Assembly (NCBI GenBank): GCA_964016885.1
Contig: OZ024757.1
Span: 20,398,001-20,462,000 of the forward strand
Direction: 5' to 3'
DNA: 64,000 bases
Origin: Eledone cirrhosa
Lineage: Eukaryota
The number at the start of each line of letters is the position of its first letter. Position 1 is the stretch's first letter. Both the position numbers and the translations under genes were made by a program. This document shows, in pieces, positions 5,233-37,693 of this stretch. The notes under the pieces were generated by a model. That model searched no databases and was not told the origin of the DNA. It saw only the letters and a list, made by a program, of their open reading frames with translations.

Positions 5233-5415
5233 ATATATATATATATGTGTGTATAATAAACAACATAAGATGATTATTTCATTTACCAGTGGTTTCTTGA
5301 AAGCAAATAAATCTGCTTTCAGTCGTCAGAATGAAAAAAATCCTGATGTTTTTATTGAATGTGGATTTTTACCCACATTCAATAAAAACGCCATTATTTC
5401 ACCTTTTCATATAAA

Positions 5416-5842: not shown

Positions 5843-8240
5843 TCATCATCATCATCATCGTTTAACATCCATTTTTCCACGATAGCATGAGTTAGATGGG
5901 TTGTCTCGTTAGAAGCTGATATGGGACTGTTTCTGGCTAGATTTCTATAGCTGGATTTACAGTGTGGGCTGGGAGATTTTTGTTATGACACCTACATAAC
6001 CACTTTAGAGTGTGGGCTGGGAGATTTTTGTTATGACATCTACATAACCACTTTACAGTGTGGGCTGGGAGATTTTTGTTATGACACCTACATAACCACT
6101 TTAGAGTGTGGGCTGGGAGATTTTTGTTATGACACCTACATAACCACTTTACAGTGTGGGCTGGGAGATTTTTGTTATGACATCTACATAACCACTTTAC
6201 AGTGTGGGCTGGGAGATTTTTGTTATGACACCTACATAACCACTTTACAGTGTGGGCTGGGAGATTTTTGTTGACACCTACATAACCACTTTACAGTGTG
6301 GGCTGGGTGATTTTTGTTATGACACCTACATAACCACTTTACAGTGTGGGCTGGGAGATTTTTGTTATGACACCTACATAACCATTTTACAGTGTGGGCT
6401 GGGAGATTTTTGTTGACACCTACATAACCACTTTACAGTGTGGGCTAGGAGATTTTTGTTATGACACCTACATAACCACTTTACAGTGTGGGCTGGGAGA
6501 TTTTTGTTATGACATCTACATAACCACTTTACAGTGTGGGCTGGGTGCTTTTTGTTATGACATCTACATAACCACTTTACAGTGTGGGCTGGGAGATTTT
6601 TGTTAAGACACCTACATACCCACTTTACAGTGTGGGCTGGGAGATTTTTGTTATGACACCTACATAACCACTTTACAGTGTGGGCTGGGAGATTTTTGTT
6701 ATGACACCTACATACCCACTTTACAGTGTGGGCTGGGTGCTTTTTGTTATGACACCTACATAACCACTTTACAGTGTGGGCTGGGAGATTTTTGTTATGA
6801 CATCTACATAACCACTTTACAGTGTGGGCTGGGAGATTTTTGTTATGACACCTACATAACCACTTTACAGTGTGGGCTGGGAGATTTTTGTTATGACACC
6901 TACATAACCACTTTACAGTGTGGGCTGGGAGATTTTTGTTATGACACCTACATAACCACTTTACAGTGTGGGCTGGGTGCTTTTTGTTATGACATCTACA
7001 TAACCACTTTACAGTGTGGGCTGGGTGCTTTTTGTTATGACACCTACATAACCACTTTACAGTGTGGGCTGGGAGATTTTTGTTATGACACCTACATAAC
7101 CACTTTAAAGTGTGGGCTGGGAGACTTTTGTTATGACACCTACATAACCACTTTAGAGTGTGGGCTGGGAGATTTTTGTTATGACATCTACATAACCACT
7201 TTACAGTGTGGGCTGGGAGATTTTTGTTATGACACCTACATAACCACTTTACAGTGTGGGCTGGGAGATTTTTGTTATGACACCTACATAACCACTTTAC
7301 AGTGTGGGCTGGGAGATTTTTGTTATGACACCTACATAACCACTTTACAGTGTGGGCTGGGTGCTTTTTGTTATGACATCTACATAACCACTTTACAGTG
7401 TGGGCTGGGTGCTTTTTGTTATGACACCTACATAACCACTTTACAGTGTGGGCTGGGAGATTTTTGTTATGACACCTACATAACCACTTTACAGTGTGGG
7501 CTGGGAGATTTTTGTTATGACACCTACATAACCACTTTCCAGTGTGGGCTGGGAGATTTTTGTTATGACACATGCACAACCACTTTACAGTGTGGGCTGG
7601 GTGCTTTTTGTTATGACACCTACATAACCACTTTACAGTGTGGGCTGGGAGATTTTTGTTGACACCTACACGACCATTTTACAGTGTGGGCTGGATGTTT
7701 TTGTGCTACCAACATAACTTTATTGAGTAAGGGTGGTGTGAGTGGAAGTTGGAGGGTGGTGTGGGAGGATGTAAGGAAGGGGGTATAGTGATTAAAAGGT
7801 GCCGACTGGATGTATGTTTGAGTTTGTGTGTACACGTGAAGGCGGGTCTTCTCTATTACTGCACAATGCCAATAATCTCGATCCTGTGTCATTGTCTTTG
7901 AGAGGTGCAAGTGTGCAAGGTCAGCGTTTATTACTCCATAGCTTCCATCAATTTTGATCGCCATGCACTTTTTTTATACAGCTGTCGTCCTTCATATGCA
8001 TCACATGACCATACCAATGCAATATCCTCTTTAAAATACTGCAGATGATCCCTCTAATGCCTAATTTCTCAGTTCATTTTTTCTTTGCCATTTGTGTATA
8101 TTTACTATTACACGTCCATCAGAGCATGAAAGCTTCATTTCTTTCCAATTTTTGCAGCCCCTCTGCACACAGTGCCCAGGTCTCACTTCACTACCATGCA
8201 ACATTGCTGTTCGTATACAAGCATCGTACAAGCTGCCCTA
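5843..8240 (-). mobile_element. RTE LINE 3' portion whose 3' UTR has expanded into a minisatellite
   Basis: Degenerate RT C-terminus at 7835-8240 (AIKIDGS...LHLSKTMTQDRDYW, like 36093-37313); tail read as catcatcat on + at 5843-5860. Confidence 0.75.
5956..7705. repeat. 48-bp minisatellite, about 36 copies
   Basis: Unit accactttacagtgtgggctgggagatttttgttatgacacctacata; 16-aa periodic ORF. Confidence 0.95.
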
Positions 8241-16465: not shown

Positions 16466-18585
16466 TGAGGGGTGGATAGGGCCTTTGAGTCCAGTAAGAC
16501 AATCTCTCTAGTGCTGGTGGCATGAATAAAAGCACCCAGTCGATGCTGTAAAGTGGAGGGGTAGAGAGGGCCCCTGAGTCCAGTAAGACAACCTCTCTAG
16601 TGCTGGTGGCACGAATATAAGCACCCAGTCCATGCTGTAAAGTGGTACTGGTGTTAAGAATGTATACTAATGCCAAAAACTATGAGCACAACAAATGAGA
16701 ATTGCAGCAACTGCATAAAGAGCAATAACACTAACCATGTCAGGGCTGCGCACGGTAGTGGGTGACTGGTGCGGCCATGTGCAAGAACCCCCGACCGTCA
16801 TCAAGCAATCGCACAACAGGAACAAGAACATGAAGACATTGCATCTCAGAGTTGTCACACTTAATGTTGGCACTCTAACAGGTAGATCTGGTGAGATAGT
16901 GGAGATGCTGGCAAACATCTCAGTTATAAGCTTTTCTGGGTGGGTAATGATGATGGGTTAGGTGGGGGTAGGCATTTTACTGGTTGAGAGATGGATCGAT
17001 AAGACAATAGAAGTAGTTAGAGTCAGTAATAGACTAATTGTAGGCAAAAGACTGCTGACAATCATCGGGCAGGCCTAGGTAAAGAAGAGAAAAACTGCTT
17101 TTACGAGCAACTTTTAGAAACAGCCGCAATGACAGAGGACGGAGACATCGTTATGCTAGCAGGGGACTTCAATGGTCATGTTGGACAGCTCCAGGATGGA
17201 TACATTGGGGTACATGGAGGGCACGGTTATGGTTCAAGAAATGAAGAAGGAGTGAGGCTTCTTGAATTTAGTGATGCAAGTGCACTAACCATTTGCAACA
17301 GTAATTTCAAGAAACCTACCAACCACCTAATAGCCTACAAATCAGGCGAGCACATAAGCCAGATTGACTTCTTGCTAGTTAGGCAGCGAGACAGACAGAT
17401 GGTGTCAAATACTAAGGCATACCCCGGGGAAGAATGTACCCCACAGCATAGGTTAGTCATTAGTGACATCTCAGTAAGCAAGAGACAGAATGAGACATAC
17501 AGGAAGGTGTGGAAAAGAAAGGTCTAGAAGCTAAAAGATCTTTCACTAAAATATAAATTTAGGAAAGCCCTTCAAGATGTGTATGACGAAAAAGAAGACG
17601 ATTTAGAGTCGTATGACATAGATGATAACTGGAATTTTTTACGTGACAACTTACTGCAGGCTACTGAAGAAACTTGTGGCTGGAGCAGAGCTCCAACCAG
17701 ACAGAGAGTAACCTGGTGGTGGAACAGCACGGTAGATAGGGCCATTAGAGACAAAAGACTAGCATGCAAGGCTTGGAAAAATGGTGGGAATAGAGAAGGA
17801 TACACAGTTGCTAAGAGAGAAGCTAGACATCAGGTGCACTTAGCACGCAGGGAGGCTGAGAGTAGGAGGTTTGCCAATGTTCTGCAATGGGAAGATCAGA
17901 GACATGCGGTGTTCCGCATTGCAAGGCAGTGTGTCAGTGCAAATCAGGATGTTGTTGGAGATAAATGCGTCCGGAATGATGCCGGTCTACTTAGTGTCAC
18001 AAATGATCAGAAAAAGGAGGCCTGGAAATGTCATTATGAGAGACTGATGAATGTGGAGAACGACAGAGGGACCAGCTATTGAGACTGATGAATATAGGGT
18101 CCAAGAGGCAATTAAGGAAATGAAAAATGGTAAGGCCGCTGGACCGTTGGGGATAGTTGCTGAGATGCTGAAGGCTTCAGGAGAAGTAGGCACCAAACCG
18201 GTTGCACGCATCATCAATCAAGCTATATATGGTGGCATCATACCCAAAGACTGGTACAGCAGTATTCTCATAAATTGCTACAAAGGTAAAGGGGATGCTC
18301 TGGAGAGGAGCAATTATAGGGGGATAAAGCTGATGGATCAGGTTATGAAAGTGACAGAGAGAATACTAGCGCAAATGATTAGAGAAAGGGTCAAAATAGA
18401 TGAGATGCAGTTTGCTTTTGTGCCTGGGAAAAGTACAACAGATGCCCTCTTCTTAGTGAGACAACTACAAGAGAGGTTCTTAGAGAAGAATAAGCCACTA
18501 TACTTAGCTTTTGTTGATCTAGAGAAGGCCTTTGATGGGGTACCCCAATCTGTCATCTGATGGTCCCTAAGGAAACCAGGTCTAG
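16466..18585 (+). pseudogene. RTE-clade LINE 5' half (APE endonuclease and RT N-terminus), frameshifted, 3' truncated
   Basis: TLNVGTLTGR, GDFNGHVG, SQIDFLL, NYRGIKL and FVDLEKAFD motifs across ORFs 16737, 17129, 17579 and 18051. Confidence 0.9.
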
Positions 18586-21009: not shown

Positions 21010-21321
21010 GGTGCCACGGCAAAAAAGCGGCCAACCCACACTGTAAAGAGGACGTGGAGGTGCCACGGCAAAAAAGCACCCAGCACTCACTGTAAAGTGG
21101 ACATGGAGGTGCCATGGCAAAAAAGCACCCAGCACTCACTGTAAATGAGGTTGGTGTTAGGAAGGGCATCCAGCTGTAGAAATCAAGCCAGAATCAGTTC
21201 CCGTATGAGCAAGACAAGGTCAGCCGACTGGACGCTGCCCGCAACAGGACAACCCGTCTAACCCATGCTAGCATGGAAGAATGGACGTAAAACGGTGATG
21301 ATGATGATAATGATAATATAT

Positions 21322-21369
<48 letters not shown>

Positions 21370-21458
21370 TCATCATATACATATATATATACCGTCTAAC
21401 CCATGCTAGCGTGGAAAATCGATGTTAAACGGTGATGATGATGATAATGATAATATAT

Positions 21459-21510
<52 letters not shown>

Positions 21511-21611
21511 ATATCATCATCATATACATATATATATATACCGTCTAACCCATGCTAGCGTGGAAGAATGGACGTAAAACGGTGATGATGATGATGATAA
21601 TGATAATATAT

Positions 21612-21644
<33 letters not shown>

Positions 21645-21890
21645 CATATACATATATATATATCATCATCATATACATATATATATATACCGTCTAACCC
21701 ATGCTAGTGTGGAAGAATGGACGTAAAACGGTGATGATGAGGATAATGATAATATATACACACACACATATATATATATATACATATACATATATATATA
21801 TCATCATCATATACATATATATACCGTCTAACCCATGCTAGCGTGGAAAATGGACGTTAAACGAAGATGATGATGATGATGATGATATAG
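21010..21890 (+). repeat. RTE/SINE tail followed by about 4 tandem re-duplications of tail plus microsatellite (~150 bp)
   Basis: ccgtctaacccatgctagcgtggaa...gatgat recurs five times. Confidence 0.8.
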
Positions 21891-22175: not shown

Positions 22176-22259
22176 AGTGGAGAGATGCTGTGCTGAATAG
22201 GACCCGTCCAACCCTTGCAAGCAGGGAAAAGCGGACGTATGATGATGATGATATATACA

Positions 22260-22311
<52 letters not shown>

Positions 22312-22431
22312 TATAGACATAGAATATTCGAAAATATTCTGTATGTTTATAATAAACATTTTGAAGACCTAATCGCTATAGAATAGAATACGTCACGTAT
22401 TACAATTAGATTCTCGATAAAAGCAAGGGAA

Positions 22432-23714
22432 GTAATCTACGCGTTTCATTCTTGTTAGAATTCATCAGGACTACATATCCAGTGCTTTTATCGAGAATGA
22501 CACAGCTAGAGACTTATAGAATACTTAGCTGTGTACAGGAACTGGTTTGAAAGAGCGGTTGCCGGTCCGGCAGAAATTAGAAATTGGAATAAATGCTCTG
22601 AAATAGCGATATATATGTGAATATAGACATAGAATATTCGAAAATATTCTGTATGTTTATAATAAACATTTTGAAGACCTAATCGCTATAGAATAGAATA
22701 CGTCACGTATTACAATTAGATTCTCGATAAAAGCAAGGGAAGTAATCTACGCGTTTCATTCTTGTTAGAATTCATCAGGACTACATATCCAGTGCTTTTA
22801 TCGAGAATGACACAGCTAGAGACTTATAGAATACTTAGCTGTGTACAGGAACTGGTTTGAAAGAGCGGTTGCCGGTCCGGCAGAAATTAGAAATTGGAAT
22901 AAATGCTCTGAAATAGCGATATATATGTGAATATAGACATAGAATATTCGAAAATATTCTGTATGTTTATAATAAACATTTTGAAGACCTAATCGCTATA
23001 GAATAGAATACGTCACGTATTACAATTAGATTCTCGATAAAAGCAAGGGAAGTAATCTACGCGTTTCATTCTTGTTAGAATTCATCAGGACTACATATCC
23101 AGTGCTTTTATCGAGAATGACACAGCTAGAGACTTATAGAATACTTAGCTGTGTACAGGAACTGGTTTGAAAGAGCGGTTGCCGGTCCGGCAGAAATTAG
23201 AAATTGGAATAAATGCTCTGAAATAGCGATATATATGTGAATATAGACATAGAATATTCGAAAATATTCTGTATGTTTATAATAAACATTTTGAAGACCT
23301 AATCGCTATAGAATAGAATACGTCACGTATTACAATTAGATTCTCGATAAAAGCAAGGGAAGTAATCTACGCGTTTCATTCTTGTTAGAATTCATCAGGA
23401 CTACATATCCAGTGCTTTTATCGAGAATGACACAGCTAGAGACTTATAGAATACTTAGCTGTGTACAGGAACTGGTTTGAAAGAGCGGTTGCCGGTCCGG
23501 CAGAAATTAGAAATTGGAATAAATGCTCTGAAATAGCGATATATATGTGAATATAGACATAGAATATTCGAAAATATTCTGTATGTTTATAATAAACATT
23601 TTGAAGACCTAATCGCTATAGAATAGAATACGTCACGTATTACAATTAGATTCTCGATAAAAGCAAGGGAAGTAATCTACGCGTTTCATTCTTGTTAGAA
23701 TTCATCAGGACTAC
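22432..23714 (-). ncRNA. Five type I hammerhead ribozymes (22432-22474, 22742-22784, 23052-23094, 23362-23404, 23672-23714)
   Basis: Minus strand: gtagtc-CTGATGA-attct-aaca-agaat-GAA-ACGCGT-A-gattac. Confidence 0.85.
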
Positions 23715-23841
23715 ATATCCAGTGCTTTTATCGAGAATGACACAGCTAGAGACTTATAGAATACTTAGCTGTGTACAGGAACTGGTTTGAAAGAGCGGTT
23801 GCCGGTCCGGCTGTGTCATTCTCGATAAAAGCACTGGATAT

Positions 23842-24194
23842 GTAGTCCTGATGAATTCTAACAAGAATGAAACGCGTAGATTACTTCCCTTGCTTTTATC
23901 GAGAATCTAATTGTAATACGTGACGTATTCTATTCTATAGCGATTAGGTCTTCAAAATGTTTATTATAAACATACAGAATATTTTCGAATATTCTATGTC
24001 TATATTCACATATATATCGCTATTTCAGAGCATTTATTCCAATTTCTAATTTCTGCCGGACCGGCAACCGCTCTTTCAAACCAGTTCCTGTACACAGCTA
24101 AGTATTCTATAAGTCTCTAGCTGTGTCATTCTCGATAAAAGCACTGGATATGTAGTCCTGATGAATTCTAACAAGAATGAAACGCGTAGATTAC
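23842..24194 (+). ncRNA. Two type I hammerhead ribozymes (23842-23884, 24152-24194)
   Basis: Same motif on +; predicted cleavage after A23878 and A24188. Confidence 0.85.
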
Positions 24195-24352
24195 TTCCCT
24201 TGCTTTTATCGAGAATCTAATTGTAATACGTGACGTATTCTATTCTATAGCGATTAGGTCTTCAAAATGTTTATTATAAACATACAGAATATTTTCGAAT
24301 ATTCTATGTCTATATTCACATATATATCGCTATTTCAGAGCATTTATTCCAA

Positions 24353-24423
24353 TATATATATATATATACATACATATATATCTATACATATATATATATA
24401 CATACATATATATATATATATAC

Positions 24424-24454
<31 letters not shown>

Positions 24455-24488
24455 CATACATATATATATACATACATACATATATATC

Positions 24489-24519
<31 letters not shown>

Positions 24520-25035
24520 CTATACATATATATATATACATACATATATATCTATACATATATATCTATACATATATATATATACATACATATATATCTA
24601 TACATATATATCTATACATATATATATATACATACATATATATCTATACATATATATCTATACATACATATATATCTATACATATATATATACATACATA
24701 TATATCTATACATATATATCTATACATACATATATATCTATACATATATATATATACATACATATATATATATACATACATATATATCTATACATATATA
24801 TATACATACATATATATCTATACATATATATATACATACATACATATATATACATACACATATATACATACACATATACATACATATATATATATATACA
24901 TACACACACATATATATATATATACACGTACATATATATATATACATACATATAAATACATACGTACATATATATATATATATACATACATACATACATA
25001 CACATACATACATACATACACATACATACATACAT
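24353..25035. repeat. (TA)/(TACA)/(TCTA) compound microsatellite
   Basis: Direct inspection. Confidence 0.9.
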
Positions 25036-25496
25036 AGATGGTGTAGGGTCTTATAACTATTTAAAGGGCAACTAAAGTAATGTAGCTGTAGAGTAAAGGG
25101 CTCTATTAAAAAGTAGCATGTTTATTGGGTTAACTTAATGCTATATATACTTAGGGGGGACCTCTGTGATGGCAAAATATAAACATGACTGGTATGATCG
25201 GAGGCAATGAAAATGTAAATAGAGGGAAGCTAAGAGCAGAGCATGTTTGATAATAGTTGTGGGAAACCTAGCTGATTCACTTCAATGTTAAACAAATTTC
25301 AGAAAGTATTATGACAAAAAAATTGTGAGGGCACACTATCTGTTTATCTATGTGTATGAGTAGATGGGCTGGTAGTAAGGGGCTTTTGTCCTTGTTTATG
25401 TTTTAAGGTAAATACCATTTATTTCCACATGGTGACAGAGTTGTTAAAACATAGGATGAAATACCTTGTTGGGTTTCTTTCATTTCCCTGCGTTAT

Positions 25497-25845
25497 GGAG
25501 GCACATGGCTTAGTGGTTAGAGCATTGGCCTCGCAATCGAAAGGTTGTGAGTTCAATTCTCAGACCGGTTGATGTGTTGTTTCCTTGAGCAAGACACTTT
25601 ATTTCACATTGCTCCAGTTTACTCAGCTGTAGAAATGAGATGATAGGGACTGGGGTTCCTATCATTCCACTGCAAAGTGGTCGTGGAGGTGCCACGGCAA
25701 AAAAACCACCCAGCACTCACTGTAAATGAGGTTGGTATTAGGAAGGGCATCCAGCTGTAGAAATCAAGCCAGAATCAGTTCCCGTCCCACCCTTGCAAGC
25801 AGGGAAAAAGCGGACGTAAAATGGTGATGGTGAAGATGATGATGA
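25497..25845 (+). mobile_element. SINE-B
   Basis: Full-length match to 4874-5230. Confidence 0.85.
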
Positions 25846-36043: not shown

Positions 36044-37693
36044 GGAGAAGTACCTAGCCAAAGGTAAACCCCTCTACTTAGCTTTTGTCGACTTGGAGAA
36101 AGCCTTCGACAGAGTCCCCCGCTCCATTATCTGGTGGGCTCTTAGAAAACTAGGCATTGACGAATGGCTTGTGAGGGCTATACAAGCCATGTATAAAGAA
36201 ACAGTCAGCAAGGTTAGAATTAACAACGAATATAGTGAAGAGTTTAGCGTAAAAGTTGGCGTCCATCAGGGCTCTGTTCTCAGCCCCCTACTATTTATTA
36301 TTGCCCTTCAGGCTATAACAGAGGAGTTCAAGACAGGCTGCCCATGGGAACTCCTATACGCAGACGACCTGACACTCATAGCGGAATCAATGGCCGAGCT
36401 AGAGAAGAAATTCCAAACATGGAAGCACGGCCTAGAGTCAAAAGGACTTAAAATTAACCTGGCTAAGACCAAAGTACTAGTTTGTAGGAAAGAAAACAAG
36501 GCGGCGGTCCCTTCTGGGAAATGGTCGTGCTCGGTGTGTAGGAAAGGCGTAGGTAGAAACTCCATTTTATGTCCTAAATGCAAAGTATGGGTGCATAAAA
36601 GATGTAGTGGGATCACAGGTAAGCTAACTAAGAACATAGATTTTACATGTGGCCGGTGTTCTGGTGCAATAAGTAGCAGCAAGTGCCCACAAAATACTAG
36701 CTCTTTCAATTGCGCAGAGGGTTCTATAGAAATAGTGGACAGCTTCCGTTACCTGGGCGATAAAATCAGCAGTGGGGGAGGGTGCTCTGAAAGTACTGTA
36801 GCTAGAGTCAGAACTGGTTGGAAAAAGTTCAGAGAGCTTATACCACTATTAGCTGCTAAAGGGTTCTCCCTAAAAATGAAAGGCAGGTTGTACGATGCCT
36901 GCATACGAACAGCAATGCTGCATGGCAGTGAGACCTGGGCATTGTGTGCAGAGGATATACGCAGACTAGAGAGGAACGAAGCTTGCATGCTCCGCTGGAT
37001 GTGTAACAGTAATATACGTGAACGGCAGAGCATAAACGAACTAAGGAAAAAATTAGAGATAAGAGGGATCAGATGTTGTTTACTCGAGAGAAGGCTACGT
37101 TGGTATGGACACGTGATGCGCATGAAAGTCGATAGCTGTATAACAAAGTGCAGGGCAATAAAGATAGACGGTAGTCACGGAATAGGCAGACCTAGAAAAT
37201 CCTGGGACGAGCTGATAAACTCCGACATCACACACTTACACCTCTCCAAGACAATGTCACTGGACCGAGACCTTTGGCGGTACTCAGTAACAGAGAAGAC
37301 CCGCCTTACCTAAATATATAGTAAAACCTACTCCAGCCAGTAGGCATCTCTAACAAAATACACCCCGTCCCACCACCACCACCACCCCCACCCCATCCAC
37401 ACCACCCCGTTCTATGTAAAGTTATGTTGGTGCCGCGCCATCGAGGCCGAAACAAATGAGATCGTGTAGGTGTCACGACAAAAAAACACACAGTCCACGC
37501 TGTAATGTGGCCGTGTAGGCAACACGGTAAAAACCTCCCAGACCCACACTGTAAATGTGGTTGGTGTTAGGAAGGGCATCCAACTGTAGAAAACCTGCCA
37601 GACAGTCCTATGCGAGCAAGACAATCACTCTTGCCTCAAGTGGGACTACCCCCGTCCAAACCCATGCAAGCGTGGAACACGGACGTTAAACGT

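Follow-up and report, generated by a model that had tools for sequence, protein, structure and literature searches.

Within the 64,000-nucleotide stretch of Eledone cirrhosa DNA analysed here (the window), the locus at 22308-24353 consists of two back-to-back divergent arms of 310-nt units, 4.85 units on the minus strand and 1.75 on the plus strand. Unit position 1 is the first base 3′ of the predicted ribozyme cut, window 23879. On this numbering the inverted or 'short-end' arm (22308..23811, minus strand) runs through its 4.85 identical units from a 5′ end at position 177 to a 3′ end at position 130, or 139 when AT microhomology is counted, and the forward or 'tail' arm (23810..24353, plus strand) runs through its 1.75 identical units from position 242 to position 165. 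The arms meet 5′ to 5′ in a 2-nt microhomology (23810..23811), and the forward arm alone terminates in a 35-nt 'tail' (24319..24353, plus strand; unit positions 131-165) of a size that fits the 30-40-bp tail of Penelope-like elements (PLEs). The target is a (TA)n tract, present on the left at 22251..22307, where it is the source of the T at unit position 131 of the terminal copy, and continued on the right as (TA)n or TA-rich microsatellite at 24354..25036. The initial annotation described a single tandem array; five of the hammerheads are in fact on the minus strand and two on the plus, and the inversion that it overlooked is the most informative feature of the locus, carrying two fixed reverse-transcription start sites and the tail.

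Units within the array are 100% identical over their 310 bp. The unit has no reverse transcriptase (RT) or GIY-YIG ORF, the longest frame of its circularised form is 59 codons, and a search of the window for a PLE ORF gave no match, so that the original description of identical units devoid of RT or endonuclease frames is borne out. With 106 of 310 bases G or C the unit is below 50% GC, and once circularised it folds better than shuffled sequences do (z=-3.9). Homogeneity had also been taken to mean a very recent insertion; youth is supported, but the identity reflects the copying of one template as well, because haplotypes vary between arrays, 40 of them being represented among 104 arrays.

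Directly to the left of the array (21254-21889 and 22180-22250) a SINE-like end is repeated in tandem as 149-bp copies, together with (GAT)n and (TA)n, and a weak tRNA-like Rfam match at 25506-25563 (26.5 bits, E 0.032) is perhaps a SINE head. LINE-type fragments are at 17033-18560 (endonuclease and RT) and 36045-37313 (RT, then a PHD finger), and a Pfam scan of 15 of the 66 window frames for a host gene around the insertion detected only LINE-type RT, endonuclease and PHD fragments. One more hammerhead-like motif, the eighth and unrelated to the others, was picked up by a loose scan on the minus strand at 5329; its stem I has 7 bp.

Core and stems of a type I hammerhead are complete in all seven units: at 23842..23884 and 24152..24194 on the plus strand, with predicted cuts after 23878 and 24188, and at 23672..23714, 23362..23404, 23052..23094, 22742..22784 and 22432..22474 on the minus strand. 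A 16-bp helix extends stem I in every unit (23818-23833 with 23891-23906 on the plus strand) and is under selection across arrays. The seven cores, the stems, the flanking helix and the cut site are thus all where the initial annotation had placed them. It had proposed an Rfam Hammerhead_1 search; that family gave no match, and all seven motifs match Hammerhead_HH9 at 23 bits (E 0.035), well below the gathering score of 52. Its characterisation of the hammerhead as 'minimal' also has to be revised. Helix I has 6 bp with an internal loop, helix II has 4-5 bp, and helix III is a single A-U pair closed by a palindromic tetraloop. Helix II comes in two variants (A or T at unit position 287), with the base of the helix mismatched (U-U) in the one that predominates in the family. 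The minimal PLE hammerhead of PMC4209133 is one in which helix III is absent or only its conserved core is present, from which the motif of the 310-nt unit differs. Canonical metazoan type I hammerheads are described in the same account with geometry such as that found here and with cleavage expected as dimers; the motif, judged by its predicted pairing, fits that class, and dimer cleavage would be expected of it. The folding energies predicted are -0.5 kcal/mol for the hammerhead drawn as a monomer and -7.5 for the intermolecular helix III duplex.

Copies of the unit are numerous. The exact 43-nt ribozyme pattern, in the variant of the window alone, has 2,528 matches genome-wide against none for a reversed control, and so the motif is not there by chance. 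Further exact-pattern searches located 1,492 short-end junctions with TA (position 130/139; control 9) and 1,067 tail-end junctions with TA (position 165). The family therefore numbers at least 1,492 insertions and is dispersed, high-copy, mobile and young. Haemocyanin genes of seven units in the same genome place the host among the molluscs and would point to an octopod. Its arrays were sampled from 120 regions of one chromosome, C1 (1-184 Mb), taken from the first places listed in three pattern searches, which with the window gave 115 arrays, 112 of them complete; two regions (L198, L221) held no array above threshold, and L050 and L242, bounded by Ns, and L233, cut off, were dropped. For most arrays this choice by pattern selected one end, leaving orientation, second end and interior unselected. 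The mean array in the sample is 9.2 units, which extrapolates to roughly 10,000 or more units genome-wide. Two loci (L246, L250) represent a subfamily that has diverged further: its unit is 312 nt, about ten differences run through the whole array, and the end sequences are shifted. Six others (L041, L048, L071, L078, L077, L209) are 311-nt variants in which one base, C or T, is inserted two positions past the predicted cut in every unit; this extra base is compatible with stem I and is possibly a ligation-site scar.

The anatomy seen in the window is the rule. Ninety-five of the 112 complete arrays are two-armed, all of them divergent; 16 are one-armed (14 with the short end, two with the long end) and one is complex. 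Short ends fall at unit position 139 in 92 of the 95, and long ends at 165-172, again in 92 of the 95. Position 131 is C in internal copies and T in 68 terminal copies, which is what would be left if a (TA)n target annealed to the AU run at 132-139 and primed across the mismatch. Arm junctions are mostly overlaps of 0-5 nt or short fillers. At one of them (L166, C1 near 45,281,600) 272 bases of unrelated sequence stand between the arms, suggestive of a template switch to another RNA. Metazoan non-LTR retrozymes, where they have a target-site duplication, have one longer than 4 bp; within (TA)n a duplication cannot be defined, and the one insertion outside a microsatellite, L034, shows 12 bp.

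An inverted 5′-truncated copy together with a 30-40-bp tail on one end is the footprint described for PLEs (10.1101/2021.04.23.441226), and PMC11167929 showed for a PLE protein, after purification, that it cleaves both strands and extends them from two sites within the RNA which delimit the tail. Both traits are present here, the inverted 5′-truncated copy in 95 of 112 arrays and the one-end tail in the offset between ends at 130/139 and at 165-172, and the insertion anatomy strongly implicates Penelope-type machinery.

At their 5′ ends, in contrast to these two fixed starts, the arms stop anywhere in the unit. The ends are distributed uniformly (n=206, p=0.18) and do not pile up at the predicted cut, with four of 206 within 5 nt of it where 6.6 are expected. 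The cut is crossed once by 197 of 210 arms and twice by 171 of 210; in the two-armed arrays 90% of arms exceed one unit, and arm lengths follow a roughly exponential distribution. In 45 of the 95 arrays it is the short-end arm that is longer, and because either arm may be the longer neither was copied from the other; synthesis of the second arm on the first is ruled out on these lengths.

The two arms appear to go back to one template. Among arrays with long enough arms, 76 of 81 have the same majority haplotype on both sides, where 5,000 random re-pairings of arms averaged 8.6 and never exceeded 18. Twenty variants each fill a single sampled array. Passage through a single monomer was probed genome-wide with two variants. 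The first, 216G, occupies every one of the 18 units of L231; nowhere else in the assembly does it fill an array, its other occurrences being isolated units or part of one expanded arm. The assembly probably represents one haplotype, and missing parent arrays could lie elsewhere. The second, 88T, fills the 24 units (11+13) of L213, whose arms are longer than those of any other carrier. A single 88T unit in an array of the L213 background is a possible parent, though the presence of 88T on another background too leaves that assignment short of proof. Repeated copying of one RNA circle would explain together the shared haplotypes, the random 5′ ends, the crossing of the cut and the variants that fill arrays.

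The reading preferred here, with a probability of about two in three, is that of a young 310-nt hammerhead retrozyme inserted as two arms into TA microsatellites, likely by a Neptune-type RT rolling round one RNA circle from both cut ends. Arrays would be transcribed and their tandem hammerheads would cut, probably as dimers through the palindromic helix III, to release 310-nt monomers that a host ligase would close into circles. A Neptune RT/GIY-YIG protein would then cut both strands of a (TA)n tract. The terminal sequences are those expected if one DNA end primes on the AU run 132-139, with the target T overwriting position 131, and the other primes at 165-172, the enzyme presumably being the same protein. 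From each primer, synthesis would go on for about five laps on average round one shared, probably circular, template and stop at random phase, and the two cDNA ends are linked through short microhomology or filler. Multimer templates likely account for a minority of insertions, and long arms expand afterwards in the DNA. The retrozyme identity, the dependence on Penelope-type machinery and the re-insertion as multimers that had been put forward at the outset are supported by the genomic evidence. Counting against the preferred reading are the in-register deviations of three arrays and the later expansion of long arms, both taken up below, a haplotype change (at 276) that in L062 occurs part-way along one arm only, the sub-gathering Rfam scores, the weak monomer fold, the lack of sequence similarity between candidate helper and unit, a second Neptune family with similar end spacing, the dispensability of ribozyme cleavage for PLE insertion in vitro, the failure of eight of nine frog retrozyme dimers to cleave, and a sample that comes from one chromosome with one end pattern-selected.

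Circles would not be needed if the same two-primer Penelope-type insertion used a long uncleaved linear, or a multimeric circular, transcript of the parent array, which we regard as unlikely for the family as a whole. It would predict the absence of a pile-up at the cut equally well, and it accords with the weak helix III, with the majority U-U mismatch, which is as in a slowly cleaving axolotl motif, and with in vitro work in which ribozyme cleavage is dispensable for PLE insertion and unprocessed RNA is the main substrate (PMC11167929). It also has direct footing in three of the 95 arrays (L195, L240, L206), where a deviation occurs at the same lap in both arms, with 16 more units beyond a haplotype switch in one case; in-register deviations of this kind are impossible from a monomer circle and need a multimeric template or a coordinated switch. 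Single-unit changes inherited from a multimer should, though, be present in both arms, and within the zone covered by both arms 66 deviations are arm-specific against those three arrays with shared ones. Nor can a multimer spread a new variant through every unit, as with the 20 variants that each fill one sampled array and with 216G, for which there is no uniform parent array genome-wide, and arm lengths would shrink with each generation.

Still less probable is a nicked, non-covalent circle in which the ends of a cleaved monomer are held together by the hammerhead fold while the RT jumps from the 5′ to the 3′ end on each lap. The pairing of stem I places the two cut ends next to each other, such a molecule would yield uniform arrays with 5′ ends at random just as a closed circle would, and the genomic data do not separate the two. 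Such jumps should however leave indels at 310/1 that differ from lap to lap, and the only recurrent insertions nearby (after position 2, in seven arrays) are array-wide; covalent circles are moreover the documented product in coral, mussel and axolotl (PMC7229834).

A quite different route, in which short PLE-type insertions are later amplified and homogenised locally as satellites by unequal crossover, is a scenario that bioRxiv 10.64898/2026.07.22.740005 considers; it seems very improbable as the origin of these arrays. Secondary expansion is real: in arms of 15-45 units (L074, L053, L238, L166, L244) private variants are repeated at irregular spacing, and because of this the long arms can be said to have expanded in DNA after insertion. 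Unequal crossover needs more than one starting unit per arm, however, where a cleaved linear monomer gives at most 0.53 unit, and it is at odds with the preponderance and roughly exponential lengths of arms above one unit and with haplotypes shared between opposite arms down to the partial end units. Finally, an assembly artefact from palindromic long reads or collapsed repeats is scarcely credible. Inverted identical repeats are error-prone, unit counts are as assembled, and beside an N gap one array has been duplicated (L242/L060); yet in 95 arrays the arms have unequal lengths, two different fixed ends and unique flanks, and in short-read contigs of sequencing run X2, which may come from the same individual, loose TA ends occur at 24017 and at 24048, corresponding to positions 139 and 170.

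On the preferred reading, a variant that fills an array was present in the copied RNA, and comparison of array-wide with single-unit variants is informative about that RNA; positions 112-172, affected by the ends, were excluded from the mutation-spectrum tests. Where a substitution falls in stem I, stem II or the 16-bp helix, pairing is retained in seven of eight array-wide cases against three of 24 single-unit cases (p=2.6e-4), and the catalytic core has none of 39 array-wide variants as against six single-unit ones. Transmitted variants thus appear to be under selection for the RNA helices and, because array-wide variants keep pairing and spare the core, the templates that get copied would seem to need the fold. 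The array-wide class is also enriched in A>G on the sense strand (10 of 29 substitutions against 11 of 108 single-unit ones, p=0.002). Counted as independent array-wide gains, A>G makes up 16 of 46; it recurs at positions 276, 20 and 259, recurs on several backgrounds at a UAG in stem I, and nine of the 11 A>G sites are paired. A-to-I editing of the template would give such an excess and so would tolerance of G-U pairs, so that editing is a lead only. Tentatively, and at somewhat less than even odds, the arrays can be seen as the record of twin rolling-circle reverse transcription by a telomerase-related Penelope RT at both ends of a break, making a palindromic satellite in one step, with each array a clone of one RNA inclusive of its A-to-I edits, which would thus be written back into the genome.

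A candidate for the enzyme is at hand. The genome has 10,596 GIY-YIG candidates, of which 150 were scored; the long ORFs among them consist of an RT with a C-terminal GIY-YIG domain and a CxxxxCxxC linker, and by that motif, as given in 10.1101/2021.04.23.441226, they would be Neptune-type. One young family has 46 stop-free matches, 32 with identical scores, and back-to-back arms in six of 11 loci fetched, with ends 124 and 164 nt past the hammerhead cut; by the same measure the retrozyme ends are 130 and about 164 nt past its cut. The PLE unit (L181-L192) is 4,734 bp, with a 436-aa frame overlapping the 784-aa RT/GIY-YIG frame, occurs as a full tandem dimer at L181, and has in its pLTR a degenerate hammerhead (U3-A8 core, altered GAAA). 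Of other Neptune families two have different ends (76/142 and about 200) and one has similar ends (120/about 165). The initial annotation suggested searching for a PLE with the same pLTR, and none was found: the young family aligns to the unit with a score of 95 against 95.9 +/- 8.7 for shuffled sequence, and no significant similarity to an autonomous PLE pLTR was detected in 50 GIY-YIG regions or in that family, a comparison over a fraction of the 10,596 candidates, among which a matching PLE may exist. The young Neptune-type family, sharing geometry and not sequence, is accordingly a candidate helper by layout and not a demonstrated partner.

A match beside a GIY-YIG ORF at L082 proved to be the nested insertion of a sister retrozyme. 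This 314-nt family (L082:2440-2870; L131-L160) has 184 exact matches and is identical to the 310-nt unit in 214 of 326 alignment columns, with ends at 130 and 164, again counted from the hammerhead cut. It is older, at 66% identical columns, and has a different hammerhead and the same two ends; conservation is best from about 60 to 200, which may be a protein-recognition element. Further short hammerhead-bearing insertions lie in TA tracts (L120:6560-6730 and 7500-7710; L116; L129; L121), in some of which helix II again has a U-U mismatch at its base, and several retrozyme families share the TA target.

Twenty sequencing runs from 17 studies, none on record as RNA, contain 73-100% of sampled words from the unit. 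Run X2 has 631 contigs with the unit at very high depth, and X1 and X3, under two other organism codes, each have a single 340-nt circular contig at depth 26-34 identical to the minority variant present in the window; the raw reads of X23, with the organism code of X11, have no unit match in 1.9 Gb. Low-level cross-contamination is probably the simplest reading of the unit's occurrence in runs of other species, and horizontal transfer is not supported in the four runs examined (X1, X2, X3, X23).

How animal retrozymes spread is an open matter in the literature, where PMC7229834 puts forward copying of circles by RT, with PLEs as candidate source of the enzyme, and bioRxiv 10.64898/2026.07.22.740005, which links retrozymes to pLTRs, sets this beside local satellite amplification and leaves the mechanism unresolved. 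To this can now be brought more than 1,000 young insertions with the two-start-site footprint of PLEs and a mutation pattern of one molecule per array. A template, the two priming sites and an intact enzyme as candidate are thereby specified, and the step is open to in vitro test. If it occurs as proposed, satellite DNA could arise from RNA in a single step, the inverted copies and tails of PLEs would be explained, and RNA edits might reach the germline.

A literature search outside subscription journals, Repbase and supplements gave no description of two-armed retrozyme arrays or of a cephalopod retrozyme. Copying of circles by RT has been proposed before, and the search found no demonstration of it. 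Parts of the proposed mechanism have parallels elsewhere, with enzymes and templates that differ from those of the 310-nt retrozyme. In L1 twin priming two primers give a 5′-to-5′ inversion, L1 priming on poly(A) and not being known to make multimers, and repeated copying of one RNA template occurs in telomerase repeat addition and in the rolling reverse transcription of DRT2, the cDNA of which is not known to be integrated. MRC1 of Chlamydomonas was also considered as a described analogue and set aside, having 0 occurrences in PMC9977147.

Newt satellite 2 and the axolotl retrozymes (PMC7229834) have, like the 310-nt family, a 1-bp helix III with a palindromic tetraloop (HHR_Amex1) and the U-U mismatch of the majority variant (HHR_Amex2), with dimer-dependent cleavage to be expected; sequence and host are unrelated, and insertion anatomy is absent from that account. 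With metazoan non-LTR retrozymes in general (PMC7229834, PMC7761336, bioRxiv 10.64898/2026.07.22.740005) the 310-nt family shares a tandem unit of 150-450 nt that codes for no protein and includes a type I hammerhead, a GC content under 50%, the absence of LTR features, copies in the thousands, a predicted circle that is self-paired, and co-occurrence with PLEs. Those retrozymes are described as head-to-tail repeats; the present arrays are built of two arms in divergent orientation whose ends are fixed, and they have a PLE tail, (TA)n as target and a single haplotype in each array, none of which those texts describe. Cleavage and circles are demonstrated for published metazoan retrozymes (coral, mussel and axolotl in PMC7229834), and for the 310-nt family they are predicted. 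With Neptune-type PLEs that have the endonuclease (EN+; 10.1101/2021.04.23.441226, PMC11167929) it has in common the inverted 5′-truncated copy, the 30-40-bp tail on one end, two internal RT starts with a hammerhead upstream of them, extension of both target strands and a microsatellite target. It differs from them in that the unit has no RT or GIY-YIG ORF and each arm is many laps of a short unit, and from the four Neptune-type families inspected in having no pLTR sequence similarity beyond the resemblance of the hammerheads. On every feature testable in sequence, then, the 310-nt family is a non-LTR retrozyme, and it integrates like a PLE.
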